From the IMG/VR virus record IMGVR_UViG_3300033122_000343: 64,000 nucleotides of DNA, one strand, 5' to 3'. The notes beneath the pieces were generated by a model. That model had not been told where the DNA came from and made no database searches. It was given only the letters and a program-made list of their open reading frames with translations. Each line of letters starts with the position of its first letter. The first letter of the stretch is position 1. This document shows positions 4,099 to 27,049 of the stretch, one piece after another. Origin of the DNA: a virus (Duplodnaviria; Caudoviricetes). A program made the position numbers and the translations under genes.

Positions 4099-4748
4099 CC
4101 ATCTGCATTTTTTAAGATCCTATTTGTCACGTCACCTGGCTCTCTTACAAACCAACCCGTTGCAATATACTTCGATTTATCACCAGTCAAAAAAGAACCC
4201 CTATGCATATGTGTATATGCTGCTGGCCAAATAACAACAGTTCCCGTTGTGGGATGAAAAGTTTTTTTCTGATGATAAAAATCTGTCCCTCCTCCATTCT
4301 CTACAGGTATATCATTTAAGTAAATCATCCAAGTTAAAACTCTATCTCGATATAAGAAAGCACCATTTTCACAATGCCATATATGATAACCACCACCAGG
4401 ATCTGTGCGTTGTATTTTAGCAGTCCATGAAGATACGGGATCCATGTTGTCTAGAATACCTGTGTATTCTTTTGCATACTCTTCAAATGCAACTCCAACA
4501 GTTTGATTAACTTGCATTGCCAAACCAGCATCACAAACCTCCAAATATAATTGATGATCTTTTCTTCCCATACCACCATTTTTAAATTGATCTTTACCTT
4601 CATTCGTTGATCCTTGTTCAAGTCCTTCAGAAATATCTTTTTTTACATACTTCAAAGCATAAAAATGTTCAAAAGAATCAATTACTTTTTTACAAAAATC
4701 CTTTGTAACTAATCCTTCCCATACACCTATGTGATCGTAAATTTTCAT
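4095..4748 (-). CDS. 2OG-Fe(II) oxygenase
   Basis: YHIWHCE, WMIYLND, GGGT, THMHRG, KYIATGW; start taken at the ATGA overlap. Confidence 0.85.
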   Translation of the reverse strand: MKIYDHIGVWEGLVTKDFCKKVIDSFEHFYALKYVKKDISEGLEQGSTNEGKDQFKNGGMGRKDHQLYLEVCDAGLAMQVNQTVGVAFEEYAKEYTGILDNMDPVSSWTAKIQRTDPGGGYHIWHCENGAFLYRDRVLTWMIYLNDIPVENGGGTDFYHQKKTFHPTTGTVVIWPAAYTHMHRGSFLTGDKSKYIATGWFVREPGDVTNRILKNADG

Positions 4749-6386: not shown

Positions 6387-7168
6387 TATATAACCTCCCA
6401 ATTATCACAATAAAGATCAGAGGTATCATGATGCTTAGTGTATCCAGTGCCAAACCATTTCTTAGGTGCAATGATTCTTTTCTTTTTATTTTCACACAAC
6501 CATGATCCCCACCATGAAAATGAAGAATTAGCAATTATAAAATCAGAACATAAACTCATCATACAAAGATCTGCAACATTATCCCCACCTTCTGATACTA
6601 AAAATCTATCATCTTTAAATTGCTCATTACACCATTCAGGATCATCAGAAAAAATAATTACGACTCTATTTGAATCGAACATTGATAACGCCTCATCATA
6701 ATATTCTTTAGGACATGGAGGATGATTATCACAATTTGTGATGTAGTCTGTTCTACGAACATGTAACGCTATTGGATCTTCTACTTGGTTTATCATGTCC
6801 TGACATGGACTGACAATTTGATTTTTAAATTGAAAATCCTCTCTTACTTCTTTTTCTATATGATTGAAATATTTTGTAGATTGTAAATAGGCATAAATGT
6901 TATGTCCATCTGGCATATTGTTAAATAAATTTTCATCAAAATGAAAGTGTGCCTCTTGAACGTAAGGACCTGGTATTTCTTTTATATTTTTAAGACCTGT
7001 TAATTTAAATGCTTCAAACAATTGATGATCATGCCACTCATCTTCAAAGTCACTAGCAGGTATAGCCCAATCATATCCTTTGTGTTCTGCTATACCTCTA
7101 AGTCCAGCATACTGGAACATTTGATTTCCAAGTCGTCCATGACGACCTAAATGATTAAATCCAATCAT
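6386..7168 (-). CDS. Glycosyltransferase family 11 (alpha-1,2-fucosyltransferase-like)
   Basis: GRLGNQMFQYA, HVRRTDY, IIANSSFSWW. Confidence 0.92.
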   Translation of the reverse strand: MIGFNHLGRHGRLGNQMFQYAGLRGIAEHKGYDWAIPASDFEDEWHDHQLFEAFKLTGLKNIKEIPGPYVQEAHFHFDENLFNNMPDGHNIYAYLQSTKYFNHIEKEVREDFQFKNQIVSPCQDMINQVEDPIALHVRRTDYITNCDNHPPCPKEYYDEALSMFDSNRVVIIFSDDPEWCNEQFKDDRFLVSEGGDNVADLCMMSLCSDFIIANSSFSWWGSWLCENKKKRIIAPKKWFGTGYTKHHDTSDLYCDNWEVI

Positions 7169-7844
7169 GTTTTCTTTTCAAATAATCAATTTCAGTTGGT
7201 AAAAGATGCTCAAAAGTTCTTTGAGTTTGATTTTTATGCTCACGATTTGATATATGATAATCGTGTAAAATCGCTGGTTCTCCATGATATTTATAGAGTC
7301 TATAATACATATCACAATCCATCAACATGGTAATTTCCTCATCAAAAAATTCATTCAAATCCTTTCTTAAAGCAAGAATAGATGGAGAACTAAGTGTGTT
7401 TACACCCTCTAATAATTTGTCATTATAATGAGGTATTTTTGGATTGTAATGTGATTGTCCATCATTAAGAGTGTGAGCATAACCTGTGACTGCCCACTTG
7501 ACATCATCTGTAAATGTTTTATCAAGTTGCTCTGTCAAATTTGATGTAAGAATAAAATCGTCTGAAAATAATACCTTCAAAATTTCACCTTTTGCTTTAC
7601 GCATAGCGTTGTTTGTATTAGCAGATATATTTCCTTTATTTTCTTTATTTTTTACATAAACTATATTAAGGACATCAGCATACTCATCACACGCATATCT
7701 AACTTTATTTGAATCAGAATGATCACTTATTGTGACATCAAAATTTTTATACGATTGCTGTGACAATGCATAAAAAATATCAAATAAAAACTGCTGGCAT
7801 CTTGGGTTTCCATCATGAGTCGGAATGCAATAACTTACTCTCAT
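7155..7844 (-). CDS. Glycosyltransferase family 2
   Basis: SYCIPTH, ISDHS, NTNNAM, FSDD. Confidence 0.85.
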   Translation of the reverse strand: MRVSYCIPTHDGNPRCQQFLFDIFYALSQQSYKNFDVTISDHSDSNKVRYACDEYADVLNIVYVKNKENKGNISANTNNAMRKAKGEILKVLFSDDFILTSNLTEQLDKTFTDDVKWAVTGYAHTLNDGQSHYNPKIPHYNDKLLEGVNTLSSPSILALRKDLNEFFDEEITMLMDCDMYYRLYKYHGEPAILHDYHISNREHKNQTQRTFEHLLPTEIDYLKRKHDWI

Positions 7845-8767
7845 TGTACTAAGTCTAAGACTGATAATGGGATTCTATTACTAATTAGTTTTTCGTAGTC
7901 TTTATGTAATTCACATCCTATATAATATCTTCCCAATTGTCTTGCTACCATTCCAGTAGTGCCTGATCCCATGAAAGGATCTAATACAATGTCACCCTCC
8001 TCGCTTCCTGCTTTAATACAGGGTTCAATCAGGTCAGGTGGATATGTTGCGAAGTGTGCTTCACGATATGGTTTATTTGTTACTGTCCAGACAGATCGTT
8101 TATTCTTTGTTGGATATGATTTTGTAAGACCTGAATGTGGTTGTAGTCCTGTTCCCTCGTTGTGATATTTTCCGTTTGTTCTATCTCTTGTTCCCCAATC
8201 TTTTGCTGGTTCTTTGATTGCTTCATTATTATAAAAATAATTTTTGTTTTTACTGAATAAAAAGATATATTCATGTGCTTTTGTACATCTATCTTTCACA
8301 CTCTCTGGCATTGGGTTTGGTTTGCTCCATATTATGTCCTGTCTCAAATACCATCCATCATTTCTCATTGTGAAAGCAAAGAGCCATGGGATTCCAATGA
8401 GATCTTTTTCTTTTAATCCTTCAAATTTATTTCCTCGTTTATTGCATTCTTGTGGTAGATCTTGTGTCGTTTTACTCACAGATTGTTTAGGGTATGATTG
8501 TCCTTTGCCAGGTCTGTAATTATAGTAACTATCGCCAAGATTAACCCAAAGAGTTCCATCATCTGTGAGCACATTTCGCACCTCTTTAAAAACTTTTACT
8601 AATGAATCAATGTATTCTTCTGGAGTTTGCTCCAATCCAATTTGATCATCTTCTCCACCATAGTCCCTTAGTCCATAGTATGGGGGAGATGTAACACAAG
8701 TTCTTACTTTAACATTTATTTTCTTTAATGTTTCTCGACAATCCCCATATAATATTGTATCTCTCAT
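7841..8767 (-). CDS. DNA methyltransferase, N4-C/N6-A beta class
   Basis: TSPPY near the N-terminus; HFATYP and VLDPFMGSGTT near the C-terminus. Confidence 0.93.
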   Translation of the reverse strand: MRDTILYGDCRETLKKINVKVRTCVTSPPYYGLRDYGGEDDQIGLEQTPEEYIDSLVKVFKEVRNVLTDDGTLWVNLGDSYYNYRPGKGQSYPKQSVSKTTQDLPQECNKRGNKFEGLKEKDLIGIPWLFAFTMRNDGWYLRQDIIWSKPNPMPESVKDRCTKAHEYIFLFSKNKNYFYNNEAIKEPAKDWGTRDRTNGKYHNEGTGLQPHSGLTKSYPTKNKRSVWTVTNKPYREAHFATYPPDLIEPCIKAGSEEGDIVLDPFMGSGTTGMVARQLGRYYIGCELHKDYEKLISNRIPLSVLDLVQ

Positions 8768-9438
8768 AAGTCAAGAAGTAATTCAAATGCTTCACAATTG
8801 TAACTTCTTAACTTATTTCTCAATTCATTTGAAATGTCATTGTGTATATACCATTCTTCCATGACGCAATTATTATTTCTTAAATTACAACCAACCAGAT
8901 CATATTCATACTTATAAAATATATCTCTATGATCAAACTCACCACCCCATTGTCTATATGCGTCGTGTTCATATGTAATACAATTAAATTTTAATTTATC
9001 AAAAGGAAATTTTTTTAAACATTCTAATGTAGCTGCTGGTGGTTCTAAATCAATAGAAAGATAATCGAGATGTCTTGGTAGATTGAGTTCGTCTATATGA
9101 GAAACATAATCAAAATTAATTGCGTCATCTTTATACATCTTTGTTAGAGGTCTTTTACCATTCCACATATCTGCAAATTCACTTTCAAGTTCTATAGATA
9201 ATCCTCTCCACTCAAAATGTTCTTCTAATAACCATGTATTGTTTCCTATGAAAGGTTGTCCACCACCTATCTCTATAAATGTGCCATTGTCTTTACCATC
9301 ATTCACAACCAAAGCAAAGATATCTTGCCACACCTGTGAGTAATTTTTTTTAATATTTTTAAGTGATTCAGGTTTTATCTTTAGGAATTCGTAATCCTTT
9401 TGAATGTAGTTTGTTTGACACTGACTTTGAAATGGCAT
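8764..9438 (-). CDS. FkbM-like SAM-dependent methyltransferase
   Basis: YSQVWQD, GTFIEIGG, NNTWLLE, DYLSIDLE, ITYEHD. Confidence 0.75.
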   Translation of the reverse strand: MPFQSQCQTNYIQKDYEFLKIKPESLKNIKKNYSQVWQDIFALVVNDGKDNGTFIEIGGGQPFIGNNTWLLEEHFEWRGLSIELESEFADMWNGKRPLTKMYKDDAINFDYVSHIDELNLPRHLDYLSIDLEPPAATLECLKKFPFDKLKFNCITYEHDAYRQWGGEFDHRDIFYKYEYDLVGCNLRNNNCVMEEWYIHNDISNELRNKLRSYNCEAFELLLDL

Positions 9439-10228
9439 TTTTCTTTACATCCTGTTGAATTTTTCTTGTCAATCTTGGGACAACATCGTTGTCACTATGA
9501 AATTGTTTTGCAATCTCATAGTTTTTTTCTATGACATCTTGCTTACTATTATAGTAGTCTTCACTAATAAAGTCCATGATATCAACCAACTCTGACACAT
9601 TATCAAAAGTTATAACTCCATCCATATCAAACCACTTACTTAAATTTGGACAACCATAATAAATTGGAATTGTTTTACTAGCGAAACAATCAATTATTTT
9701 TTCAGTAAAATAATTATCTTGTTTTGAATTCTCGACAGCAACATGAAACATTGCATTTTCAAAAAAATCATTTCTTTCTGGATAAAAAGGTGGAGATAGA
9801 TGTTGATATATTTCTATATCATTTAATGTTGTGTCAATATTTTTTAAGTATTCGTATATTGATAATCGTAATCTATGCCCCTTAGTGTGATTTTTACTAC
9901 TCGTGACAAAAGTTAAATTAGGTTTTTTATTTAATTTTAAATTTTTAAAATCTAACCAAGATGATCCCCATTCAAAAAGTTCTGCTTGGGGATATTTTTT
10001 AATGATGCTTTGTGTAAAAGTAAATATTCTATCAAATTCATATGAATTCTTTAATGCTCCCTCATTAATTGTCGGTGCGACTGCAAAAGGTTCTGCTAAA
10101 AACAATATCTTATAATCTGCTTTAGGGTCAAAAGATAAATTGTCAACTGATATACTTACTTTACAATCAAAATCTAATCCTTTTTCCTGCCAAGGATTCC
10201 ACCACAGGGTTTGTATACTTGCTTTCAT
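9368..10228 (-). CDS. Glycosyltransferase family 10-like (fucosyltransferase-like)
   Basis: FHVAVENS, YFTEKIIDCF, IPIYYG. Confidence 0.75.
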   Translation of the reverse strand: MKASIQTLWWNPWQEKGLDFDCKVSISVDNLSFDPKADYKILFLAEPFAVAPTINEGALKNSYEFDRIFTFTQSIIKKYPQAELFEWGSSWLDFKNLKLNKKPNLTFVTSSKNHTKGHRLRLSIYEYLKNIDTTLNDIEIYQHLSPPFYPERNDFFENAMFHVAVENSKQDNYFTEKIIDCFASKTIPIYYGCPNLSKWFDMDGVITFDNVSELVDIMDFISEDYYNSKQDVIEKNYEIAKQFHSDNDVVPRLTRKIQQDVKKNAISKSVSNKLHSKGLRIPKDKT

Positions 10229-10879
10229 CTTATATCTTGAAAATGATAATGGAATCCAAATGTCTCAATACCTTTGTGTTCAGGACATTCAACCTCTTTT
10301 GAGAAACGTGCTGCAATCTCTACAGGAGCAAAAACACATCCTTGCTGTTCAAAGATATGTCTATTATGGACACAAATGTTTCCGTCTTCGTTATATAGGT
10401 TTGCATTCATGTGTTTGTAAAAATTACCTTCGTTTACTTCCCAAGGAACCTCTACAATTTTAGGAACATTTAAAAGCTTCCTGCTGCGTAGCGAGCAACC
10501 TCCATTTCCCACTCGTTGATTCCTACCCCATGGATCAAGGTAGGCAGTTGGGTCATCTCTCCATGGTGCTCCAATATAGTCATACTGTAACCATGTGTCA
10601 TCCCAAAGCCAAGGGCGTATAACATAACCGTCAGGATGAATGAGAAGACTGTGTGTTGTCTCCACATGGTTACAGAGATTATAAATGCAATAGAAATTAA
10701 AATCATTGATCGATTGAATTGGATAGACTTCTTCGTAAGTTGCTTGTTCGCATATACCTTCTGGTTTTCCTTTACTACTTAAAAATTTAACTGCTCCCCA
10801 TTTAATTTGTTCACAACTTTTATTTACTGCATGAACAGCCTCTGGTATATCCAGATCAGCGAGCATCAATAGAGTAACA

Positions 10880-10896
<17 letters not shown>
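10225..10896 (-). CDS. DUF5672-like putative glycosyltransferase
   Basis: HPDGYV, YDYIGAPW, VGNGGCSLRS, FGFH. Confidence 0.75.
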
Positions 10897-13233
<2,337 letters not shown>

Positions 13234-13247
<14 letters not shown>

Positions 13248-14013
13248 AGTTCATAATATAATCACGTTGCTCATTTGTATTTTTCCAATCACCTGGTTTT
13301 AGATAATTACTCAAAGGCATACAATGTACCCTGACATCTGTACTAATTAACATCATGTAATTTAAGTGTTCTGATATCATTAAATCACTACAATAAAAAT
13401 TTTCAACCTTTTCGCTACATAACGCAGCAGAAACTGCAAAAGTTCCTACACCTGAACTTGCAATATTTTTTGCTGACAGTAATGTTCCAAAATCTTCTTC
13501 AACAGATTTAGACTGAACAGTCACTCTAGGATCTTTTTTTAATTCTTCAACAATGGGATTATAATTATCAGGTTCGGTTACAATGTATGATCTCGGATAT
13601 AATTCCAATAATTCTTTATAAAAACATAAAGGATTAGGAACATAATTAGTAGGATTACCAACCCCTTGGTCAAAAATATCTCCAGACCTAATGTGAATAA
13701 CAAGAGTATCGTCAGGAACAGAAATTTTCGGTACTTTGAGATGTGGTGCGACATATTTTTTACATACTCTACGCATGTTTCCATAGATGTAATCGGTGTC
13801 TGTTTCGATTTCCTGATGTTCACCTTCCCAGTAGAACCATTTGCTTTCATATATTGTAGAACTTTTTCCAAACGACGTTTTGTATTTAGAGATAATTTCA
13901 TGATCGATACTCTCAAATGTGTCCTTTCTCGCTTCAGCCACCATGGTGCCCAATGCACATTGTTGTATGTTATTTCCTAATCTTCCATACCAATGAGAAA
14001 TTTTAATTGTCAC
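13234..14013 (-). CDS. GT11-like putative fucosyltransferase
   Basis: GRLGNNIQQ, HIRSGD, GTF. Confidence 0.6.
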
Positions 14014-14884
14014 GTAACCAATCCATAATATTAACAGTTGGAGTCCACCCCAACAGAGACCTAGCCTTGGAATTACATGCTAAAGTTTCTCGGCACTCGC
14101 CAGGTCTCTCCTTAATATATATCTGGTCATCAGATATGATATCTGCGAGTTCTTGTACAGAGTAATTTACCCCTGTACCAATATTAATTATTTCATTTGA
14201 TACATCATTCATACATTTAATATTTGCATCTACAACATCATCAACATGAGTGAAGTCTCTTCTCTGTTTACCGTCGCCAACAATAGTTAAAGACTCACCA
14301 CTTTTTTTTTGTTCTTGAAATAATCCAACCACAGGTGCATATGCTCCTTTGAGTGGTTGTCTATCACCATATACATTAAAGTATCTCAGAGTTATAGTAT
14401 CAAGACCAAATAATTCTGAATACATGCGACATAATTCTTCTCCTGCTACCTTTGAAACAGAGTATGGATTTAAACAATCAGTTGGCATTGTCTCAACCAG
14501 TGGTGGTTCATTTTTTAAACCATATGAAGATGATGTACTTGAGTAAATAACTTTTTTTACACCACATTCCCTTGCTGCTTGCAATACATTAGCAGTCCCT
14601 AAGACATTTACATCAATACATTCCAATGGATTTAGTAAAGCAGGTTGTATTCTAGAGTGAGCAGCAAGATGAAATACATAATCAACTCTTTTCATACAAT
14701 TTTTTAAAACTTTGTATTGCGAAATACTTGCTTTTACATTGTACGCTTTATCATTCCAATAAAATTCTTCATTACAAGTTGAAGATTGATCGTCAATACA
14801 TGTGACAATATGCCCAAGATCTATTAACTTATCAACAAGATGAGAACCTATAAATCCTGCACCGCCTGTAACTAATAATTTCAT
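14003..14884 (-). CDS. NAD-dependent nucleotide-sugar epimerase/dehydratase
   Basis: GGAGFIGSH, YSVSK, LRYFNVYG. Confidence 0.92.
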   Translation of the reverse strand: MKLLVTGGAGFIGSHLVDKLIDLGHIVTCIDDQSSTCNEEFYWNDKAYNVKASISQYKVLKNCMKRVDYVFHLAAHSRIQPALLNPLECIDVNVLGTANVLQAARECGVKKVIYSSTSSSYGLKNEPPLVETMPTDCLNPYSVSKVAGEELCRMYSELFGLDTITLRYFNVYGDRQPLKGAYAPVVGLFQEQKKSGESLTIVGDGKQRRDFTHVDDVVDANIKCMNDVSNEIINIGTGVNYSVQELADIISDDQIYIKERPGECRETLACNSKARSLLGWTPTVNIMDWLRDN

Positions 14885-15915
14885 ATTTGAGATGACACCC
14901 ATTCATATGTTCTTTTTATACCCTCTTCAAGAGTCATTTTATAATCCCACCCTAATTTTTCACGAATAAGATCATTGTTTGAATTACGACCTCTAACGCC
15001 AAGAGGTCCTTCAATATGATTTTTGTTTATTTTCTTACCTGCTACCTTTGCAGTAACATCTACAAGTTGATTTATAGTGACCATTTCTTCCGAACCTATG
15101 TTTATGGGTTCTTGGAAATCTGATTGCATTAATTTAAAAGTGGCATCTACACATTCTTCGACGTGGAGGAATGATCTAGTTTGCTCTCCATCTCCCCAGA
15201 CATCGATGGTTCCATTATCGGGACAGTTCGCCACTTTTCTACAGATTGCTGCGGGAGCTTTTTCTCTCCCACCTTGCCATGTTCCTTGTTCTCCGAAGAT
15301 ATTATGGTAACGAGCAATCCTAATAGGAATATTATGGTTGCGATTATAAGCGAGATATAACCTCTCGCTAAAAAGTTTTTCCCATCCATACTCGGAGTCT
15401 GGGTTAGCAGGGTAAGCGGATTCTTCACGGCAGTCTGGGTTGTTAGGGTCTAATTGATTATGTTCTGGATACATACAGGCAGAACTGCTGTAGAATATCT
15501 TAGTTTTATTTACCTTATATTTTTGATTATAATCATGCTGACATTTTAAAACGTTGACATTAATAGATACAGAATTATGCATTAAATCTGCATCATTTTC
15601 TCCTGTAAATACAAATCCTGCACCACCCATATCAGCAGCAAACTGGTATATTTCATCAAAAGGTTCAATCATTTTATAAGGTATTTCATTATAATAATTA
15701 CCTTGCCAACCTTTAAATTCTAAAACCTTTTTAACTCTTGTTATGTCTGTTAAATTTTCTATAACGAATTCATCTGCTTTTGATTTAGAAAATTCTGGCA
15801 TTTTTAAATCAGCACCTCTGACCCAATAACCTTTCTCTTTGAGTTTTGTTACCATGCGATTTCCTATGAAACCACCCGCACCTAAAACAAGTGCTTTTTT
15901 TTCAGGATAATTCAT
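14881..15915 (-). CDS. GDP-mannose 3,5-epimerase-like SDR
   Basis: GAGGFIG, AADMGGAGF, SSACMYP, YGWEK, GGREKAPAA. Confidence 0.85.
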   Translation of the reverse strand: MNYPEKKALVLGAGGFIGNRMVTKLKEKGYWVRGADLKMPEFSKSKADEFVIENLTDITRVKKVLEFKGWQGNYYNEIPYKMIEPFDEIYQFAADMGGAGFVFTGENDADLMHNSVSINVNVLKCQHDYNQKYKVNKTKIFYSSSACMYPEHNQLDPNNPDCREESAYPANPDSEYGWEKLFSERLYLAYNRNHNIPIRIARYHNIFGEQGTWQGGREKAPAAICRKVANCPDNGTIDVWGDGEQTRSFLHVEECVDATFKLMQSDFQEPINIGSEEMVTINQLVDVTAKVAGKKINKNHIEGPLGVRGRNSNNDLIREKLGWDYKMTLEEGIKRTYEWVSSQI

Positions 15916-17209
15916 TTTTGATGTACTCCTCAATAATGTCGTAAATGTAATCAAGCATTGGAACTGTAATTACTGGCGATGTCCCTATGAAAAAAACATC
16001 ATCCAAAACTCTAGAAGCGTTTGGATAATTATCTGGATTACCCAAACCTTTATATGCAGGATGTCTTAAAATATTTCCTGCAAAATAATTTCTGGTTTGG
16101 ACTCCTTTACTTTCCAAATACTCTACCAATTTATGCTTGTTACCTTCATAAATTATAGGACAACCGAACCATGATGTCTCGGCATGTTCATGTTCTTGAA
16201 CAACCCTACAACCAGGTATTTTTGAAAAGATCTGACTCATGGCATCATAATTCATTCTACGAACATGATGGATCTCAGTTTGTTTCTTAAGTTGTATTGA
16301 ACCTATTGCTCCCTGTAAATCGGCAGGTTTTAAATTATATCCTTGAACACCAAAAACATATTTGTGATCTACATCCTTATCATACCCCTCCAACCATCTA
16401 TCAAATCTCTGACCACATACACCATTAGGTAATTTGTTCTGTGCTCCTACACAATAACAACCTCTTCCCCACCATGCATAGGATCTAGCGAGTTGAACCA
16501 CCTCTTCGATATCAGAAGAGACCATACCTCCCTCAATAGTTGTGATGTGATGTGCTGGATAAAAAGAACATGAAGCAGCGACTGCATTCTTTGTAAGATA
16601 ACTACCTTTCCATTTACTTCCTAATGAATCACAATTATCTGCTATGTATTCTAAGTTATTTGAATCAATAATATCTTGAAATTTATCAAAGTCATAAGGG
16701 TTGCCTAAGACAGGTGAGGAAAATACTGCAACTGTTTTTTTAGTAATTTTATTTTCTAATTCATCGAGATTCCAATTTAAATCATTCCAATCCACATCAA
16801 CAAAAACTGGTTTCAATCCATTTTGAATGATCGGGTTTATTGTTGTAGGAAATCCACAAGCACATACTATAATCTCATCATTATCTGCCCATCCAAAATA
16901 TTTTTTTAGTGCAGCAATCATCACAAGGTTTGCAGATGATCCACTATTAACCATCACGGAGTGTTTAAAATCAAATCTTTTTGAAAACTCTCTTTCAAAT
17001 TTATTTACCTTCTCACCTGCTGGCAACCATTTACCAGTGAGAAGAGATGATATTGCAGCAGTTGGTTCCTGATCATCCCAATAAGGACCTGCATATAAAA
17101 TCTGATCACCAGGTTTCCAATCTTGATTAGGTAAGTAATCAAAAAGTTCATAACCTGCTTTTTTTAAATTGACAATAAAGGTGCCAATATGATCTTCTAT
17201 GCTATACAT
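15902..17209 (-). CDS. rfbH: RfbH/E1-type NDP-4-keto-6-deoxyhexose 3-dehydratase (DegT family)
   Basis: NSGSSANL, DNCDSLGS, SFYPAHHIT (His at the usual Lys position), WGRGCYC, HKY, GYNLK. Confidence 0.8.
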   Translation of the reverse strand: MYSIEDHIGTFIVNLKKAGYELFDYLPNQDWKPGDQILYAGPYWDDQEPTAAISSLLTGKWLPAGEKVNKFEREFSKRFDFKHSVMVNSGSSANLVMIAALKKYFGWADNDEIIVCACGFPTTINPIIQNGLKPVFVDVDWNDLNWNLDELENKITKKTVAVFSSPVLGNPYDFDKFQDIIDSNNLEYIADNCDSLGSKWKGSYLTKNAVAASCSFYPAHHITTIEGGMVSSDIEEVVQLARSYAWWGRGCYCVGAQNKLPNGVCGQRFDRWLEGYDKDVDHKYVFGVQGYNLKPADLQGAIGSIQLKKQTEIHHVRRMNYDAMSQIFSKIPGCRVVQEHEHAETSWFGCPIIYEGNKHKLVEYLESKGVQTRNYFAGNILRHPAYKGLGNPDNYPNASRVLDDVFFIGTSPVITVPMLDYIYDIIEEYIKNELS

Positions 17210-18012
17210 AAATCTTTCACAATATATTCATTGGATAAATGTTGTTCAAATCCAAGTGATTTAAGTTTTGAAATATCCATCCAAAAGTTTTGAGTTTGAA
17301 CTGCTTTATGAAAATCAGGAGGTTCCATGTTTAGTAATTCACCTCTTGATCTAGAATAATATTTTGCCAATGTCATCAACTCACTGACTGTCGTTGGATT
17401 TCCAGAGCCTATGTTATATATCTCGTTAAAATTACCCTTCTCCATGACTAATTTTATGGCACGACAAACATCTGAAACATGCATTACATCACGAGTATGA
17501 GAACCATTATCATATAATTTTACATTTCTATCTGCTTTAAGTTCATCAATCATCCAACCTATTGCATTTTTCTTTCTTGATTGATTGTGATCAGCAGGTC
17601 CTAATACATTACATAATCTTAGAATTCTATACTTCATACCATAAGTATTAGCAAATGATTTAATTAAATTTTCTGCACATAATTTTGTTATCGAATAAAA
17701 CCCAGTCGGATTGCAAACTGAATCCTCATTAGCAGGTAAACTACCCTGACCATATACAAACCATGAAGATACAAAATTAAAAGTTATATCTTTCGACCTA
17801 CAAAAATCAAGAACCTCACATAAAACCTTTAAATTAGTTTCAACATCAAGAGTTATATTATCATGCACATTGTAATTATCTGTAGTTGATATCATGTATA
17901 GGATATCATTGTTTCTTGGAACTCTTTCATTTCTAGATTGTACTTCAACTTGTGAATCATACATCTCTTTGAACTTGCGTCCAATAAAACCACAACCATA
18001 AAGTGAAATCAT
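17197..18012 (-). CDS. NAD-dependent epimerase/reductase
   Basis: GCGFIG, YSITK, LRLCNVLG. Confidence 0.85.
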   Translation of the reverse strand: MISLYGCGFIGRKFKEMYDSQVEVQSRNERVPRNNDILYMISTTDNYNVHDNITLDVETNLKVLCEVLDFCRSKDITFNFVSSWFVYGQGSLPANEDSVCNPTGFYSITKLCAENLIKSFANTYGMKYRILRLCNVLGPADHNQSRKKNAIGWMIDELKADRNVKLYDNGSHTRDVMHVSDVCRAIKLVMEKGNFNEIYNIGSGNPTTVSELMTLAKYYSRSRGELLNMEPPDFHKAVQTQNFWMDISKLKSLGFEQHLSNEYIVKDLCIA

Positions 18013-18182
18013 AACTTATCTGTTTTTAAATTAAAAGTTTTGTTTAAATCCATCGTCTTATTCCTTATTATAACTTGATTATTTTCATAGTCAGCAACAA
18101 ATTCAAGTATATCTTCGTTCCCCCAACACAACTCTTCATACATTGAATTGAGTTTAGACATGTCAGACCATAGATCACTCAT
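18009..18182 (-). CDS. Hypothetical protein (57 aa)
   Basis: Manual translation MSDLWSDMSKLNSMYEELCWGNEDILEF...; fills the gap and overlaps the next gene by ATGA. Confidence 0.75.
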   Translation of the reverse strand: MSDLWSDMSKLNSMYEELCWGNEDILEFVADYENNQVIIRNKTMDLNKTFNLKTDKL

Positions 18183-19124
18183 TTAACCTCCAAATCTATC
18201 AAGATACCAAGTAATAGTTGCTCTGAGACCAGTTTCAAAATCAGTAAATGGTTTCCAACCTGTGTATTTTGTAATCTTACTATGATTCATTCCATAGCGT
18301 TTGTCAATACCAGGTCTTCCTTCGTTAATACCAATTAATGTGAGTGGTTTATTAAGCATTTTTAATATCATTTTAGTCACATCTATATTTCTCATCTCAC
18401 ATGATCCACCAATATTAAAATGATCATTAATTATATCCATAATTTCTAAATCCCATATGGCAGCACAATGATCATAAACATATAACCAATCTCTTATTTG
18501 ATTACCACCACCATGCATGTATGTGATTTTATCATTTAAAGCATTCTTTACGACAAGCGGTATTAATTTTTCTGGATGCTGATGTGCTCCATAATTATTA
18601 GAACAATTTGTTATTAAATAAGGAATACCATATGTATTATGCCATGATTTAACCATGAAATCACTGGCAGCTTTTGTTGCTGAATATGGATTACGAGGAT
18701 CATATGGTGTGGTTTCTTTGAAAAGTTCAGTGTCTTCATATTCAAGTGATCCATATACTTCATCAGTTGAAATATGATGAAACTTTTCCACATCCTTTTT
18801 AACACTAGAATTTAATAAATTAATTGTTCCTATAACATTAGATTCTAAAAAAGGTCTGTAGTTTTTAATAGATCTATCAACATGACTTTCAGCAGCAAAA
18901 TGAAATACCCTTGTTATATTATTTCTTTCAAATATATGTTGCACATGCTGTTCGTTGGAAATATCACACCATTCAAATTTAAATTGATTTGTTTTAGGTA
19001 TGTAAGATTCATTTGCAGCGTAAGTTAAATTGTCAATAACAAGAACTTCTTCATCAGTATACCTCTTAATATAATGAAGAAAATTACTGCCTATAAATCC
19101 TGCACCACCAGTGACTAATAACAT
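18183..19124 (-). CDS. rfbB: dTDP-glucose 4,6-dehydratase
   Basis: GGAGFIGSNF, FAAESHVDRS, ISTDEVYG, YSATK, CSNNYG. Confidence 0.93.
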   Translation of the reverse strand: MLLVTGGAGFIGSNFLHYIKRYTDEEVLVIDNLTYAANESYIPKTNQFKFEWCDISNEQHVQHIFERNNITRVFHFAAESHVDRSIKNYRPFLESNVIGTINLLNSSVKKDVEKFHHISTDEVYGSLEYEDTELFKETTPYDPRNPYSATKAASDFMVKSWHNTYGIPYLITNCSNNYGAHQHPEKLIPLVVKNALNDKITYMHGGGNQIRDWLYVYDHCAAIWDLEIMDIINDHFNIGGSCEMRNIDVTKMILKMLNKPLTLIGINEGRPGIDKRYGMNHSKITKYTGWKPFTDFETGLRATITWYLDRFGG

Positions 19125-19486
19125 TAATTTAAAAAATAATATTTTTCACATTCACGACCATAATCGTCTTCAAGTCTAATAATATCGTCTTCATTACATT
19201 CACCAATCTGTGTTTCTATAAATGTAATTCCATTTTTACCACCCGTCAACCTGTGTTTTGATTCACGAGGAATATAAAATTGTTTATCAACACCGATTGT
19301 TTCTTCGTAATTATTAACTAAAGCAACTCCATCACCCTGAATGACAACCCAATGCTCTGAACGATGGTTATGGTACTGTAATGAAAACCTTTGATTTGGT
19401 TTTACATATATTTTTTTAACACAATAATTATTTTCCTTAACTAAAATCTCAAACCATCCCCACGGACGATCATAATGACGATCCAT
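19124..19486 (-). CDS. Cupin, mannose-6-phosphate isomerase type II domain
   Basis: RPWG, SLQYHNHRSEHW, DIIRLEDDYGR. Confidence 0.9.
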   Translation of the reverse strand: MDRHYDRPWGWFEILVKENNYCVKKIYVKPNQRFSLQYHNHRSEHWVVIQGDGVALVNNYEETIGVDKQFYIPRESKHRLTGGKNGITFIETQIGECNEDDIIRLEDDYGRECEKYYFLN

Positions 19487-20198: not shown

Positions 20199-20246
20199 TA
20201 TTTATCATATGTATCATTTAACTGTTAAAAAATAAAAACCTAAATA
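20199..20246. promoter_or_regulatory. Divergent pair of T4-type late promoters
   Basis: ATAAATA on minus (20205-20199) and TAAATA on plus (20241-20246). Confidence 0.55.
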
Positions 20247-20272: not shown

Positions 20273-20776
20273 ATGAAAAAAATATTACTTGCTTCTTTGT
20301 TTATGTTTTCTTTTGTCCCTAGTGCTAAAGCAGACATCACCCACAAACTTAGTTCAAGCGTACAATTAACAGTAAATGCTGCTGCAACTCAAGTTGAGCG
20401 TATCGGATCATCTTACTCCGTAGTAGGGAATGGTCTTGATAGCACATATGGTACTGGTGACAGTGCTGTAACAAATGGTATCGGTGGAATGACATTCACT
20501 TCTGGTGTTGGTACTCCAACCTCAACTACATTCACACAGGATGTACCAGGTGCAAGTTTTTCACTAACTCAAACTCATGTTCAAGGTGATGCGGTATCAC
20601 AATCTGCACCAACTGTTGGTCAGGTAGGTAATTTCTCAGACCAAGTATCAACAGCATCAGGAACAGCAGGTGATCTTGCAGGTACAATCACATCAAGCGG
20701 TGCGGTGACAGTAACTGCTGGTGGTGCAGGTACAGTCGGTACAGGTCAATTTGTGACTGAACTTACTATAAATTAG
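20273..20776 (+). CDS. Exported G/S/T-rich beta protein
   Basis: Sec-type signal MKKILLASLFMFSFVPSAKA. Confidence 0.85.
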   Translation: MKKILLASLFMFSFVPSAKADITHKLSSSVQLTVNAAATQVERIGSSYSVVGNGLDSTYGTGDSAVTNGIGGMTFTSGVGTPTSTTFTQDVPGASFSLTQTHVQGDAVSQSAPTVGQVGNFSDQVSTASGTAGDLAGTITSSGAVTVTAGGAGTVGTGQFVTELTIN

Positions 20777-20790
20777 TAGGTTATTATACG

Positions 20791-21219
20791 ATGAAGAGGG
20801 TTTTTATATTATTACTTTGTCTTCCTTCGTCAGTTATGGCAGTCCCCGTGGTGCCCAATTTTACACAGGGTTCCATGACCAGCCACACGGAAACGACTTC
20901 GACGGTGACAGAGACCATAAATTCTATGGACTATTCCACAGGTTGGACATACTCGGTAACGGGTACAAATGTTCAACATGATGGAACATCCATATCCCCT
21001 GATGCTACATCAAATCAAAGTAATGTATTAAATGGAGTGACTTCGACATGGACAGGTTTAGATACCAGTCAAAAACCAAACTGGAACATAGTAGAAAGTG
21101 GTGCAGCGTTTCAATTCACAGAGCACTACAATGGCCCAGGACTTCAGACTCAGACAATAATTCAAAGAGAAACCACCGTAACAAGCATAACAGATACAAC
21201 TTCAATCTTCAGTCAATAG
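20791..21219 (+). CDS. Exported Thr-rich beta protein
   Basis: Signal MKRVFILLLCLPSSVMA; motifs shared with the preceding gene. Confidence 0.85.
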   Translation: MKRVFILLLCLPSSVMAVPVVPNFTQGSMTSHTETTSTVTETINSMDYSTGWTYSVTGTNVQHDGTSISPDATSNQSNVLNGVTSTWTGLDTSQKPNWNIVESGAAFQFTEHYNGPGLQTQTIIQRETTVTSITDTTSIFSQ

Positions 21220-21911
21220 GGTCATCAGTTCTATCTGCTATTAGTCTTCTTACTATAACTACCCCAGTCTTAGCAAACACAGACGTTGGGGGAGTTTCTG
21301 CTACCGCTAATCCAGTCGCCAACTCTTCAGGCTCAGTAACCAATCAGGCAATACAAGTTTTACAAGGACCGTATATAACTAATACTTATGGTAATGGCAT
21401 ACAATGTCAGGGTGCCACCGCCAATATTACACCCTATGTCACTAGAACAGGATCATGGTCTGACCCATACGAATCAATTTTCCAAGATCCCGTGTACGAC
21501 TTGAGCACTGATGCAGATGGAAATTTAATTAATCCAGGTGGTGTATTATATTATGTTCCTACAAGAACAGGACAAAAATCAAATCAGAATATAAATTTAG
21601 GATTCAGTGCAACTATTAGCATTCCTTTAGATAAAGAATTACAAAAACAATGTAAAGAAGCAGCTGCAGCAAATATAAAACTTATGCAACAGACTCATGC
21701 TAATAAGAGACTCGACTTTGAGATAGCCAGGTTGAAAAATTGTGGTCAGTTAAAAAAAGAGGGTATAGTATTCCATCCTAAGTCACCTTATTACAGCGTA
21801 TGTTCTGACGTAGTTCTTGTAAATCCACCTGGTGTTGTTGGAAAACATGTTCATGAAGTTAAATCTACTTCTTCAAAGGAGGTAGACCTCTCGATTGGCG
21901 ATACTGATTAG
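21048..21911 (+). CDS. Putative exported or outer-membrane protein; start uncertain
   Basis: Internal signal-like segment VLSAISLLTITTPVLA, strand NLGFSATISIPLD followed by a long helix, four Cys in the mature part. Confidence 0.75.
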   Translation: MDRFRYQSKTKLEHSRKWCSVSIHRALQWPRTSDSDNNSKRNHRNKHNRYNFNLQSIGSSVLSAISLLTITTPVLANTDVGGVSATANPVANSSGSVTNQAIQVLQGPYITNTYGNGIQCQGATANITPYVTRTGSWSDPYESIFQDPVYDLSTDADGNLINPGGVLYYVPTRTGQKSNQNINLGFSATISIPLDKELQKQCKEAAAANIKLMQQTHANKRLDFEIARLKNCGQLKKEGIVFHPKSPYYSVCSDVVLVNPPGVVGKHVHEVKSTSSKEVDLSIGDTD

Positions 21912-22623
21912 TCTTCTTTTCACTTCTGGAAAACTCACGGTGTGTACCTGTTTTCTTTTGGAGAGTAGCGATAGCTTTTTTTACAGCAGGTTTAATTAAT
22001 CTCAATAAAAATGGTGTTGCTGTAGCTCCTGCTGTTGCAATTATTGCGATTGCTAGTGTCGTGGATGCTTGACCTGTAGAAGGTAAAAATTTTTCAACAG
22101 GTGTAGTAGGTTCGTACAATGTTATACAGATTTTACCATCAATACTAAGTTCATGACCTACAACTTTCTCATCACCTGACTGTGTTATATCACCTACTCT
22201 TAATTGAGCAGGACCAGGACATGGCACTTCTTCTTCAATTTTTGGTATTGCTGGAACTTCAGGCGTATCTATTTCTGGTGTTTCAGGTGGTTTTACGACT
22301 GGTGGAGGAACATCTTGTTGAAATATTAATTTATTAGGTTCATAATCCATCGAATCAAATTTTGGCATTCCTGCATCACATAGTACAACAGTACCATCTT
22401 CGTCGTCTGTAGGTAAATTTTCTCTTTTTAATCTTTCATCTTTATGATACTCAACACAACCAGGTAAATCTACTACAGGTGATCCTATATTAACAGTAAC
22501 AGGAGGAACATTTAAAAATGTAGGTCTTGGTTCAAAAAAATTATATTCAGGTATTCGGGGAACATTAACATTATCAATATTTGCATCCCTTATATCGTTT
22601 AATATTATATTAATATCTGGCAT
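21865..22623 (-). CDS. Pro-rich protein with C-terminal membrane anchor
   Basis: PPPVVKPPETPE, four Cys, TLAIAIIATAGATATPFLL followed by a basic tail. Confidence 0.8.
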   Translation of the reverse strand: MPDINIILNDIRDANIDNVNVPRIPEYNFFEPRPTFLNVPPVTVNIGSPVVDLPGCVEYHKDERLKRENLPTDDEDGTVVLCDAGMPKFDSMDYEPNKLIFQQDVPPPVVKPPETPEIDTPEVPAIPKIEEEVPCPGPAQLRVGDITQSGDEKVVGHELSIDGKICITLYEPTTPVEKFLPSTGQASTTLAIAIIATAGATATPFLLRLIKPAVKKAIATLQKKTGTHREFSRSEKKTNQYRQSRGLPPLKK

Positions 22624-23415: not shown

Positions 23416-23799
23416 TTATTTACCAGTGCTCTGAGTTACTATTTTAATCGGAGCTTGTTCTATACGTAAGATCTGAGTAGGATAGGATGGTTTACTTCCT
23501 CCAGTACTATCAGAAGAAGCACTCTTTTTCTTACCTGCTGCTTGAACGCCGAATGTGGCTAAAGTTCCTGTAAACACGCTGGCTATGAAAGTTGGATCGA
23601 GTTTTTGTTCTGGTATATTGAACGCTGCTGGCAATTTAACGTACGCTAATGTTAAAATTCCTGCGGACCAAAAAAGTACGATCACTCTTATCAATGTTGA
23701 TAAGTATGCTAGTTGCTCCTCTTTATCATCAATACTCTCTTTAATTTTGGTGATGATATTTTTTGGTTTTTCTTCAGCAACTTTCTTTGTTTCTACCAT
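23416..23799 (-). CDS. Two-TM membrane protein
   Basis: LIRVIVLFWSAGILTLAYV and TFIASVFTGTLATFGV. Confidence 0.8.
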   Translation of the reverse strand: MVETKKVAEEKPKNIITKIKESIDDKEEQLAYLSTLIRVIVLFWSAGILTLAYVKLPAAFNIPEQKLDPTFIASVFTGTLATFGVQAAGKKKSASSDSTGGSKPSYPTQILRIEQAPIKIVTQSTGK

Positions 23800-24900: not shown

Positions 24901-25228
24901 TTCTTGTGGATCTAATAAAGTGCGTCGCAGATAGGACAACCAACGGTTCTTTGCCATTTTTTTTGATGAATACGATAGGTTCATGATTTCCTGAGTTACT
25001 AGATGCCTGTTCATATGCATCCCATACATTCAATTTTTCCTGATTCTTACACTCTATACTATACGGAAATTTTTTTCTTGCATCTCTGGCCATAATTAAA
25101 TCTTCACCACCTGCACCCATGCTTCTAGATTCAATATCCTCTGGATGCACGTCCAATTGTTCTATCAATTGATTACGAACCCACTGCTGAAGTTTCCTTC
25201 CTTTCGCTTTCGCTGACTGTGGTTTCAT
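24893..25228 (-). CDS. PD-(D/E)xK nuclease, resolvase-like
   Basis: AKAKGR, MGAGGEDL, IECKNQE. Confidence 0.7.
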   Translation of the reverse strand: MKPQSAKAKGRKLQQWVRNQLIEQLDVHPEDIESRSMGAGGEDLIMARDARKKFPYSIECKNQEKLNVWDAYEQASSNSGNHEPIVFIKKNGKEPLVVLSATHFIRSTRNG

Positions 25229-25916
25229 TTAATATTCTCCAAGTGTCATGATAATCACTAACTTCAGTTACTAAACCCACATCTGAATTTAGTATTGCTT
25301 GACCAAGAGGGTAATCGTTTTCCCCCTCCTTTAATTTATCTCCGAAAAAATGTAGACGTTCTCCGTACATAAAGTCACGAAGTATTTGACTCTTATCTTT
25401 ATTAGATATATCAAGACCTGTTTGACCTCCAATCTGCACGTTGAGATCTGGAAATCTATCTGTCAACCTCGCAGCAATATCTCTTCTTTCATTTGTATTT
25501 TTATCCCACTTCACATACTCTTCTCTTTCGACAATGTTTACACCGCCACCCCTACCTAATACACTAAAATTTACTCCACCAGGTCTTTCCTCAATATGTA
25601 AACCATTTCTTACAGGAAACTGACTATAATCTAATTCATCTTGTAAAAATTTTTTAACGTCATCTGGTAGTCTCCACGATGAACGATATACGTTTTCCCC
25701 TTTCACCCACACGTCTGCACCAGAACAGTTATAAACTCTTTTTGCTCTGTAACAAATATCTAATCCTAATTGCTCAACTGTTTTTTCTCTATCACTACCA
25801 GTGACAAGATATACGTCATGTTTACAGCAAAACTTTATCATAAAAGTTTGAAAACTTGAATCAATTTGTTGTCTGCTTGGAGTTAGCGTCCCATCAACAT
25901 CAAAGATGTATTTCAT
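25173..25916 (-). CDS. HAD-IIB phosphomannomutase-like
   Basis: FDVDGTLT, VTGSD, FFGDK, GENDY. Confidence 0.85.
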   Translation of the reverse strand: MKYIFDVDGTLTPSRQQIDSSFQTFMIKFCCKHDVYLVTGSDREKTVEQLGLDICYRAKRVYNCSGADVWVKGENVYRSSWRLPDDVKKFLQDELDYSQFPVRNGLHIEERPGGVNFSVLGRGGGVNIVEREEYVKWDKNTNERRDIAARLTDRFPDLNVQIGGQTGLDISNKDKSQILRDFMYGERLHFFGDKLKEGENDYPLGQAILNSDVGLVTEVSDYHDTWRILNETTVSESERKETSAVGS

Positions 25917-27049
25917 AATTTAAATCCTGCAAAGGTGTTTTTCTTTACGTCTTGTTTTATACCACCTACAACATAAGATTCCACTTCAGTTTCTTGTGGT
26001 GCAACCTGTAGACCTTTTGATGAGATCCAATGTTGTGTCCATGGTAATGGGTTGCTTCTTGCAGGTACATCAAAGATAGGTTTTATACCTATTGATTTCA
26101 TTCTGCGATTAGCAATCCACTCAACGTATTTTGATAAGAGTTTCTCATTTAAACCTATCATGCTTCCATTTTTAAACAAGTAATTCGCCCAACTTTTCTC
26201 TTCTTGAACTGTATTTCTAAACATTTCAGTAACATTCTCTTTCTCTTCGTCAACAATCTCTAACATATCGGGATCATCACCCTCTGCCCACTTGTTTAAG
26301 ATTTGCTGCGTGAGGACAAGATGCTGGTTCTCATCTCTGGCAATGAGCGATATAATTTTCGCCGACCCTTCCATGGTCTTGAGTTCGCCAAAAGCAAAAG
26401 AGCAAGCAAAAGACACATAGAACCTAATGCCTTCCAAGATATTGACATTCGCAACTGCCCTATAGAGACTTCTTTTGATCTCTTTGATTTCGTAATTAGA
26501 TGTCGGAGATTTAGTATTCCAAAGACACCCTTGACTCCACTGTTGTGCATGGTTGATGAATTCATCATATGCTTTGGTAACAGATTTTGCTCTCTCTAAT
26601 ATTTTTTCATTATCTAATATTGTGTCAAATACTTCAGAGGGATCTGCGTATACATTTTTTATTATGTATGTGTATGACCTACTATGAATCATCTCCATGA
26701 ATTGCCATACATTCATAGCACCTTCCAGTTCTGGCAAGGAACAATAGGGAGTAAATGCCATTCCAGGTCCTCGACCCTGAACACTATCCAGTAGTATTTG
26801 ATACTTTAAATTGCTTGTAAATATATGCTTTTGCTCATCTGTTAATTCTTGATAATCACTACGATCTTTCTGTAAAGATACTTCTTCAGGTCTCCAGAAG
26901 TATCCCAACATTTGATTTGTTATTTTATCAAACACAGGATGTTTATATGTATCGTACCTTTGCACACCTAATGGTGCTCCAAAGAACATAGGTTGTTTAG
27001 TACTATTAACCTTACTGTCATTAAAGACAGTCATTTGTTTTACAGGCAT
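25913..27049 (-). CDS. nrdB: Ribonucleotide reductase class I beta subunit
   Basis: FWRPEEV, EMIHSRSY, LEGIRFYVSF, RDENQH, APQETE. Confidence 0.98.
   Translation of the reverse strand: MPVKQMTVFNDSKVNSTKQPMFFGAPLGVQRYDTYKHPVFDKITNQMLGYFWRPEEVSLQKDRSDYQELTDEQKHIFTSNLKYQILLDSVQGRGPGMAFTPYCSLPELEGAMNVWQFMEMIHSRSYTYIIKNVYADPSEVFDTILDNEKILERAKSVTKAYDEFINHAQQWSQGCLWNTKSPTSNYEIKEIKRSLYRAVANVNILEGIRFYVSFACSFAFGELKTMEGSAKIISLIARDENQHLVLTQQILNKWAEGDDPDMLEIVDEEKENVTEMFRNTVQEEKSWANYLFKNGSMIGLNEKLLSKYVEWIANRRMKSIGIKPIFDVPARSNPLPWTQHWISSKGLQVAPQETEVESYVVGGIKQDVKKNTFAGFKL

Follow-up and report, generated by a model that had tools for sequence, protein, structure and literature searches.

A conserved cyanophage cassette of predicted exported proteins, with a dual-coding gene pair and a possible role in breaching the host cell envelope

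Three plus-strand genes in a T4-like cyanophage

We analyzed a stretch of 64,000 nucleotides (nt) of viral DNA (hereafter, the window) from the IMG/VR record IMGVR_UViG_3300033122_000343 (Duplodnaviria; Caudoviricetes), with a focus on three consecutive plus-strand genes, here denoted g1, g2 and g3, the products of which are predicted to be exported and could contribute to the breach of the host cell envelope at lysis. The phage is a T4-like cyanomyovirus of the P-SSM2/P-HM2 kind, and at the DNA level the region around g1-g3 matches marine cyanomyoviruses alone (P-HM2, MED4-213, P-HM1 and S-SSM4). An initial annotation of the window, made from the sequence alone, described the three genes as a candidate surface or secretion module that consists of two paralogous exported beta subunits and a TolC-like hairpin protein. 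All three open reading frames (ORFs) lie exactly where that annotation placed them, and its description of the group as the only plus-strand operon holds as well: minus-strand transcription extends across almost the whole window, the other plus-strand ORFs of at least 90 amino acids (aa) are all antisense to minus-strand genes, and the other free-standing plus-strand ORF (84-488) is antisense to psbA. The features of the g1-g3 region are as follows.

20239-20246, plus strand: T4-type late-promoter-like motif CCTAAATA, 34 nt upstream of the g1 ATG
20273-20776, plus strand: g1, 167 aa, predicted exported Thr/Ser/Gly-rich beta protein (T4-GC 237, phrog_564)
20273-20332, plus strand: predicted signal peptide of g1, with predicted cleavage between AKA and DITH
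20791-21219, plus strand: g2, 142 aa, predicted exported DUF6322 protein (T4-GC 236, phrog_650)
20791-20841, plus strand: predicted signal peptide of g2, with predicted cleavage between VMA and VPVVPN
21034-21039, plus strand: Shine-Dalgarno (SD)-like GGAGTG, 9-14 nt upstream of the internal g3 start
21048-21911, plus strand: g3, ORF of 287 aa, predicted exported four-Cys protein (T4-GC 235, phrog_848/1755), with predicted cleavage before N77 (nt 21276)
21048-21219, plus strand: dual-coding overlap, the first 57 g3 codons in the -1 frame of the last 57 g2 codons

Translation of g3 from a start codon inside g2

The ATG of g3 sits 172 nt inside g2, in the -1 frame, an arrangement that the initial annotation overlooked, and between the g2 stop codon (21219) and the hydrophobic segment of g3 the window contains no ATG, GTG or TTG. 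The internal ATG is found in 77 of the 78 related loci, 165-177 nt before the end of g2, and in a codon alignment it is invariant at one column in all 65 distinct g2 genes, being formed by the A that ends a variable g2 codon (ACA, TCA, CAA or AAA) and the invariant Trp codon TGG. Among the 65 distinct relatives, the -1 frame contains no stops in 3,675 overlap codons compared to 262 stops in the 4,458 g2 codons upstream of the overlap; resampling of synonymous codons yields an expectation of 3.5 stops per sequence and a chance of about 2% that the frame stays open; and at four-fold sites the entropy of the third base is reduced within the overlap, from 1.65 to 1.28 bits (p 1.5e-5), all these values coming from related sequences rather than independent trials, with a clear contrast within the same genes. 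Upstream of the ATG, the word GGnGTGA is nearly invariant, an SD-like word being present in 59 of the 65 sequences, and the Val codon at this site is GTG in 64 of them, unlike the other Val codons of g2.

Collectively, these observations strongly support translation of g3 from the predicted ATG inside g2, in the -1 frame. Owing to the internal start, g3 acquires a basic n-region of about 56 residues, and its expression is linked to that of g2. A start of g3 after the g2 stop was considered and rejected, given that the -1 frame has been maintained free of stops as far back as the invariant ATG. Whatever the function of the encoded proteins, the overlap is a clean, deeply conserved case of coding in two frames.

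Production of a g2-g3 fusion by programmed -1 frameshifting, or non-canonical initiation of g3 just past the g2 stop, would account for the frame of g3 and for the lack, in most relatives, of ATG, GTG or TTG between the g2 stop and the hydrophobic region (h-region) of g3. We consider either route very unlikely, given that the ATG is fixed although the g2 residue at this position varies (T, S, Q or K), that the SD-like word lies 9-14 nt 5' of it, and that the frame is open to the ATG only, with the stops concentrated further upstream. Furthermore, the overlap contains no conserved slippery heptamer X_XXY_YYZ in the 65 sequences, and frameshifting was rejected on this ground. Finally, stand-alone g3 genes carry an ordinary signal peptide at the same place: in the exceptional locus L065, g3 is located about 590 nt from g2 and encodes the signal peptide MTFLKKQVRLVLLASIGIGFLSPTKALA, and the stand-alone g3 of S-CAM7 likewise encodes an ordinary signal peptide. 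The hydrophobic segment of g3 is therefore an N-terminal export signal and not an internal linker.

Export signals of the three proteins

Signals for Sec export and cleavage by signal peptidase I (SPase I) were assessed by sequence rules (positive n-region, hydrophobic h-region, small residues at positions -3 and -1) in the distinct N-termini of g1 (n=53), g2 (n=61) and g3 (n=75). Those of g1 and g2 are canonical, with an n-region charge of +2, an uncharged stretch of about 16 residues, Ala at -1 (53/53 in g1 and 59/61 in g2) and a small residue, mostly A, V or S, at -3. The signal sequences of g1 and g2 vary freely, and the mature N-termini (DITHKLSSSVQL and VPVVPNFTQGSMTS) are nearly fixed. 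In g3, an h-region of about 16 residues, SSVLSAISLLTITTPVLA, leads to a site of the A-x-A type between VLA and N, and is preceded by the basic extension of about 56 residues (net charge +9) that is rich in Arg, Asn, Ser, Lys and His, a composition that largely results from the Thr-rich codons of g2. There is no conserved Cys at the predicted cleavage sites of the three proteins, position +1 being occupied by D, V or N.

Thus, export of all three products via Sec, with predicted SPase I sites, is strongly supported by these rules, and the four invariant Cys residues of g3 are in line with export. The signal-peptide-like segments reported by the initial annotation are present throughout; the basic extension that precedes that of g3 was missed.

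Apparent paralogy of g1 and g2

The g2 protein belongs to the Pfam family DUF6322 (PF19847; 134.5 bits against a gathering cut-off of 30.6, E 2.2e-39); g1 falls below the cut-off of this family, yet appears to be a distant relative. Comparison of the two with hhalign yields a probability of 84.8% (E 6.5e-6, 56 columns), the g2 profile matches the g1 orthologue of P-HM2 (E 1e-5), and the named clusters nearest to g1 in the ESM Atlas are those of DUF6322 (score 0.97). These three partly independent results (profile-profile comparison, profile search and language-model neighbors) strongly support the assignment of g1 and g2 as distant paralogues, in agreement with the initial annotation. The motifs on which that annotation relied are both present, YSVVGNGL in g1 and YSVTGTNV in g2, and GASFSLT in g1 and GAAFQFT in g2, the second motif being one residue longer in g1 than originally written.

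In the AlphaFold2 model of g2 (predicted local distance difference test, pLDDT, 68.8), the conserved N-terminal and C-terminal segments form two strands of 23-24 residues, and the middle part is small and modeled with less confidence. On reading of the sequence, the long strands are polar and Thr-rich, without amphipathicity. A fold search with this model detected no significant match, the best Foldseek row being a tail protein of phage Andhra (E 0.015) and the top VIA row a weak match to the lysenin pore (Z 4.2, 52 residues aligned, root mean square deviation 5.9). Neither g1 nor g2 contains internal repeats. The initial proposal that these proteins are fibre subunits finds no counterpart in the model, which shows a rod of two very long polar strands without a significant fold match.

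Promoter motif and expression timing

The consensus of T4 late promoters is TATAAATA. The motif CCTAAATA, already described as a late-promoter motif in the initial annotation, is indeed found 34 nt 5' of the g1 ATG, and its TAAATA core occurs in the g1 upstream regions of 50 of the 62 distinct relatives, in 46 of them at 30-42 nt before the start codon, within DNA that is otherwise unalignable. The P-HM2 orthologues fall in the transcription classes Late(E) for g1, Late(D)/Mid(C) for g2, Mid(C) for g3 and Late(D) for g4, the gene that follows on the opposite strand (PMC5082946 supplement). Location of g1-g3 behind a late-type promoter motif and mid-to-late transcription of the P-HM2 orthologues are thus strongly supported.

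Structure and possible self-association of g3

The predicted mature part of g3 includes three segments (residues are numbered from T78 of the ORF, and conservation is from an alignment of 40 homologues).

21399-21629, plus strand: predicted long beta-hairpin with an amphipathic base and a variable acidic tip (D-x-D-G-x-x-D-N-P-G)
21633-21758, plus strand: predicted 42-residue helix (AlphaFold2 pLDDT 89-96), bracketed by the invariant Cys125 and Cys155
21759-21878, plus strand: C-terminal segment with the invariant Cys175 and the near-invariant D177 and H190-x-H192

The invariant residues are C43, C125, C155, C175, P52, P63 and G108, and P-L-D at 116-118, D177 and H190-x-H192 are nearly so. The positions of the Cys residues suggest two disulfide staples, C43-C125 and C155-C175. 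In the AlphaFold2 model (pLDDT 79.6, predicted template modeling score 0.46), the first 20-30 residues are disordered and are followed by a hairpin (53-73 and 89-116) and a 42-residue helix (119-160). Both segments noted in the initial annotation, ATANITPYVT and NLGFSATISIPLD, are present in g3, and in the model they form strands at the base of the hairpin, which leads into the helix. Among the 40 homologues, hydrophobic and polar residues alternate strictly at 105-117 and 41-54: L105, L107, I109, A111, F113, I115 and L117 are interspersed with N, N, G, S, T, S and P; opposite this hydrophobic face lie I41, C43, L48, I50 and V54. The hairpin tip (74-88) tolerates indels of up to about 17 residues around D-x-D-G-x-x-D-N-P-G. 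The near-invariant P-H-x-H of the C-terminal segment (mature residues 190-192, window positions ~21846-21854), together with D177 and C175, is a possible metal site; no enzyme family match was found for this segment.

When four copies of g3 were modeled together, the homo-oligomer modeling that the initial annotation had suggested, the copies associated laterally, with a score of 0.66 compared to 0.00 for the best of three controls. In calibration, 20 of 30 proteins solved as pairs of one chain attained this mark, compared to one of 23 single-chain proteins, counts that are only roughly valid for g3 because a custom alignment and four copies were used. Agreement of the contacts across the runs is at least 90%, with a partner pLDDT of at least 76. 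Between adjacent copies, strand 45-63 is paired with 100-118 of the neighbor (for example, 60-103, 52-111 and 48-115), and the helices pack in parallel. The modeling supports, short of showing, side-by-side self-association. In one run, the scored copy makes roughly double the number of contacts that it makes in the other two, suggesting an open sheet and hence an assembly of more than four copies. The oligomeric subunit of the initial annotation survives to this extent: the model is a laterally self-associating hairpin-plus-helix with an amphipathic base, compatible with a ring or a channel.

No family could be named for g3. A Pfam-A scan gave no family at E up to 1, the profile of 40 homologues matched nothing in the PDB beyond one chance match (E 1.2), and the ESM Atlas search returned only its own unnamed viral clusters. 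The Foldseek comparison proposed by the initial annotation likewise gave no significant solved-structure match for g3 or g2: for g3, the best E against the PDB is 0.23, and the wide VIA match covers the helix alone (Z at most 5.1). The weak rows are mostly stems of hairpin barrels, namely parasporin-2, aerolysin and lysenin (weak Foldseek matches at E 0.3-1.8), CDTb, protective antigen and the flagellar L-ring. Such entries, which recur at the top for both g3 and g2, come from assemblies (lysenin, aerolysin, anthrax protective antigen, iota-Ib stems, FlgH) in which each subunit contributes a very long hairpin that pairs with those of its neighbors. The differences are substantial: the rows are not significant (Foldseek E at least 0.015, TM-score at most 0.30, VIA Z at most 4.2), the hairpin alone is shared and not the head domains, and there is no Pfam match to a toxin family. 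The weak rows for g3 point to a common arrangement rather than to kinship.

The comparison with TolC deserves separate attention considering the initial description of g3 as a TolC-like hairpin protein. An exported protein with an amphipathic strand that runs into a long helix and that may oligomerize resembles outer-membrane efflux proteins in the general picture only. There is no OEP domain (PF02321) in g3, which consists of about 210 residues modeled with one hairpin and one helix, compared to about 450 residues and a duplicated four-strand, four-helix unit in TolC; there are no genes for membrane-fusion or pump partners; and the Foldseek and VIA rows for g3 include no chain of the TolC family, the extended monomer model matching through its helix only. 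With no OEP domain, no duplicated repeat, no PDB match by sequence or profile and no fold row, kinship with TolC finds no support and was rejected.

A conserved cassette in two phage families

The three genes belong to a conserved cassette (T4-GC 237/236/235 and PHROGs 564/650/848 for g1/g2/g3), with P-HM2 orthologues PHM2_197/196/195 in the same order (tblastn identities of 46%, 66% and 76%). T4-GC 218, 219, 234, 235 and 237 have been described as a possibly mobile cluster of hypothetical proteins that is represented in 15 of 16 cyanomyoviruses, with S-PM2 as the sole exception (Sullivan et al. 2010, PMC3037559). The genes described here are the same ones; that paper gives no function, export signal, overlap or structure for them. 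What the present analysis adds is the export signals, the statistics of the dual-coding start, the link to podoviruses, the fold and self-association model of g3 and the comparison with lysin-bearing phages.

Relatives of g3 were identified in 439 of 50,697 phage records, all of which bear the names of cyanophages or marine viruses. Clustering of the family at 90% identity gives more than 7,900 groups, and clustering at 50% identity gives 409. With a single exception (L070), g1, g2, g3 and g4 co-occur in every related IMG/VR locus in which the contig is long enough. Two minus-strand genes of the cassette follow g3 in the window.

21865-22623, minus strand: g4, Pro-rich four-Cys protein with a predicted C-terminal transmembrane anchor (T4-GC 234, phrog_570)
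23416-23799, minus strand: protein with two predicted transmembrane segments of the DUF6450 family (Pfam PF20048, E 1.9e-34)

The genes g4 and g3 are convergent, and their 3' ends share 47 nt (21865-21911); convergent overlaps of 38-44 nt are present in several related loci. The ends of the two transcripts would therefore be complementary. By its size and topology, the DUF6450 protein is holin-like.

The same genes are found outside the myoviruses. In the T7-like cyanopodoviruses NATL2A-133 and S-TIP37, g2 (PF19847) directly precedes g3, and the open frame of g3 extends into g2, with its ATG again lying on A-TGG. In NATL2A-133, the neighbors of this pair look like g4 and the DUF6450 gene (locus L082, 2718-3023), as judged by eye without alignment. 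Examination of the two podovirus loci did not reveal g1, which is present in myoviruses. The g2-g3 block of the podoviruses is located between the tail fibre and the terminase genes, where T7 keeps its holin and spanin genes 17.5, 18.5 and 18.7. DSL-LC02 also possesses both genes intact, overlapping by about 60 nt. The GenBank annotations of g3 in the two podoviruses start too far downstream, at 3648 in NATL2A-133 (locus L082, 3024-4055) and at 3651 in S-TIP37 (locus L083, 3273-4004). The proposed true start codons are at 3273 and 3282, respectively, inside the upstream DUF6322 gene, and the truncated versions lack the signal peptide and the conserved N-terminal part.

Ten matches in assemblies labeled as bacterial or archaeal all come from phage contigs in single-cell or binned assemblies, such as a 189-kb phage contig in a Prochlorococcus single amplified genome. 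Six cyanophage contigs with this cassette (L085, L087, L088, L089, L091 and L092) are filed under Formosa, Euryarchaeota, Lewinella, Bacteroidetes, Nonlabens and Gammaproteobacteria. Most likely, such cases are artefacts of binning or contamination and not signals of host range. An origin of g3 from a host gene was considered, and no evidence of it was found, all ten cellular matches being phage contigs. A scan of viral contigs with the distant homologue P0175 yielded no match.

A possible role in breaching the cell envelope at lysis

We tentatively interpret g1-g3 as the exported arm of a conserved cyanophage cell-envelope cassette that breaches the outer membrane and the envelope at lysis, a possibility to which we assign chances somewhat short of even. 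The initial annotation had proposed that the proteins act on the infected cell through exclusion, aggregation or lysis; of these functions, lysis is the one that we favor. The cassette genes are linked to small membrane proteins, including the holin-like protein with two transmembrane segments, in two unrelated phage families. Five endolysin Pfam families were searched for and not found in P-HM2, NATL2A-133 and S-TIP37.

Under this interpretation, g3 would be cleaved to a protein of about 210 residues, stapled by the C43-C125 and C155-C175 disulfides, which would oligomerize laterally into a ring comprising more than four subunits. The outer membrane would accommodate the amphipathic base of the hairpins, with the variable acidic tip facing outward and the 42-residue helices forming a periplasmic collar. 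The g2 protein, a putative rod of two strands of about 23 residues, would work together with g3 and, in myoviruses, so would its paralogue g1. The inner-membrane proteins encoded by the minus-strand genes, namely g4 and the holin-like DUF6450 protein, could participate as well, such that the cassette proteins would jointly perforate or destabilize the envelope and fill the role that spanins play in other phages.

The similarities to two-component spanins (Rz/Rz1 of lambda, gp18.5/18.7 of T7 and PseT.3/PseT.2 of T4) are in timing and organization. The cassette products are mid-to-late and appear to be directed to the envelope, g2 and g3 share DNA in different frames (an overlap of 172 nt in the window, present in 77 of 78 loci as well as in the two podoviruses and DSL-LC02), the podovirus pair occupies the position of the T7 lysis genes, and g3 has a long predicted helix and conserved Cys residues. 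Unlike outer-membrane spanins, g1-g3 lack a lipobox (position -1 is Ala, and +1 is D, V or N) and are not predicted lipoproteins. In comparison with inner-membrane spanins, g3 has an N-terminal hydrophobic segment and the 42-residue helix, but the segment carries an SPase I-type site and looks cleavable rather than like a stable anchor. Furthermore, the overlap with g2 is confined to the 5' part of g3, the products are rich in beta structure, and there is no sequence or profile similarity between spanins and g1-g3.

We further compared six cyanomyovirus lineages that encode a stand-alone lysin of the T4-lysozyme type. Four of these (S-PM2, S-CREM1, S-SRM01 and ACG-2014f) have no detectable g2 or g3. 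The case of S-PM2 looked striking: g2 and g3 were not found in this genome, and a stand-alone 'putative lysin' of the T4-lysozyme family is encoded right after nrdA-nrdB. Strict complementarity between lysin and cassette was nevertheless rejected, the pattern being broken by DSL-LC02 and S-CAM7.

The lysin is located in an island specific to S-PM2 (locus L107, positions 115200-118229 of the record). The open frame of the lysin exceeds the annotated coding sequence of 72 aa, and, on reading of the sequences, the island also encodes an exported RlpA-like protein, p158, and a protein, p159, that contains a lipobox-like LSSC. Overall, this island looks like a conventional lysis cluster. The stand-alone g3 of S-CAM7 (locus L114, 31200-31900), with no g2 found nearby, is shorter than its homologues, the hairpin being much reduced; it retains all four Cys residues, and its signal peptide, MLKHLFVGALISFSCSPVLA, is of the classical type.

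Several observations weigh against the proposed role in lysis. We found no paper that assigns a function to the cassette. The g1-g3 proteins have no lipobox, no recognizable muralytic domain and no match to a spanin, holin or endolysin family. Host lysis by S-PM2 proceeds without the cassette, DSL-LC02 encodes a lysin along with intact g2 and g3, and S-CAM7 combines a lysin with its divergent g3; the complementarity with lysins is therefore suggestive but partial, is phylogenetically non-independent and may stem from few evolutionary events. The P-HM2 orthologue of g3 is in a 'Mid' rather than a late class (PMC5082946 supplement), and the model of g2 is of middling confidence (pLDDT 68.8). Strand amphipathicity is the one feature that points to insertion of g3 into the outer membrane, and the same face could pack on another protein layer.

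Alternative functions

The closest competitor, and one that we consider rather improbable, is secretion or surface display, whereby g3 would be an outer-membrane channel that releases or displays g1 and g2 by a curli-like logic and alters the surface of the infected cell, for instance through exclusion of superinfecting phages, masking of receptors or aggregation. In favor of such a system, two paralogous exported proteins rich in Ser, Thr and Gly are encoded immediately 5' of a putatively self-associating hairpin protein, the variability of the g3 hairpin tip would fit a surface-exposed element, and the proteins are undetected in virions. The parallel with curli (CsgA/CsgB and CsgG) is that there, too, paralogous Sec-exported Gly/Ser/Thr/Asn-rich beta proteins are encoded beside an oligomeric outer-membrane protein, the latter being putative here. 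However, no match to the CsgG, curlin, secretin or usher families was found in Pfam, with the curlin repeat (PF07012) and CsgG (PF03783) absent from g1-g3 at E up to 1 in Pfam-A; g1 and g2 lack internal repeats; g1 is undetected in the two podovirus loci that keep g2-g3; and g3 exists apart from g2 in L065 and S-CAM7. Besides, superinfection exclusion is usually an early function, to which the mid-to-late timing is a poor fit.

We see still less reason to regard the g3 assembly as an outer-membrane pore or porin with an auxiliary rather than a lytic function, which would make the envelope of the infected cell more permeable, for instance to allow uptake of nutrients or ions. The amphipathic base of the hairpin and the lateral oligomer model would suit such a pore, as would the middle transcription class of g3 in P-HM2, and cyanophages carry many genes that affect host physiology. 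Against these considerations stand the tight linkage of g2 and g3 to small transmembrane proteins (holin-like and Pro-rich anchored) in two phage families, the conservation of the late-type promoter motif and the lack of similarity to any porin family.

A structural or morphogenetic role of g1-g3 in the virion, suggested by the late-type promoter, the predicted beta-rich, elongated shapes and the presence of phage tail and collar hairpins among the weak fold rows, is highly improbable given the predicted cleavable Sec signals of all three proteins, the disulfide-type Cys residues of g3, the non-significance of those rows (E at least 0.015, Z at most 4.2) and the published proteomes of S-SM1, Syn9 and S-PM2 virions, in which T4-GC 234-237 are not among the proteins detected (PMC3037559, Table S8). 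These three proteomes lend support to the argument of the initial annotation that g1-g3 are not ordinary virion parts.

Implications of a lytic role

If the proposed role in envelope breach is correct, the cassette is a lysis system made of unfamiliar parts and could serve as a marker of late infection in ocean metatranscriptomes. When cyanophages lyse Prochlorococcus and Synechococcus, a large share of the carbon fixed in the ocean is freed. A stronger version of the hypothesis, which we consider unlikely though worth stating, is that g3 is the first representative of a new class of phage-made, Sec-exported proteins, each subunit of which contributes one amphipathic hairpin and one helix to a self-assembling outer-membrane ring. 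Co-translated with the rod-like g2 through the conserved overlap, g3 would form a lipoprotein-free, spanin-independent device employed by most marine T4-like and some T7-like cyanophages for the envelope breach of Prochlorococcus and Synechococcus at lysis.

Genomic context in the window

The window is AT-rich (G+C of 29-42%), with psbA at its left end. The cassette, like the S-PM2 lysin, is located downstream of nrdB (25913-27049) and is flanked on the minus strand (25173-25916 and 18183-19486) by genes for phosphomannomutase, a GDP-mannose 4,6-dehydratase-like protein and mannose-6-phosphate isomerase that are part of a large sugar-gene island, which spans positions 533-19486.

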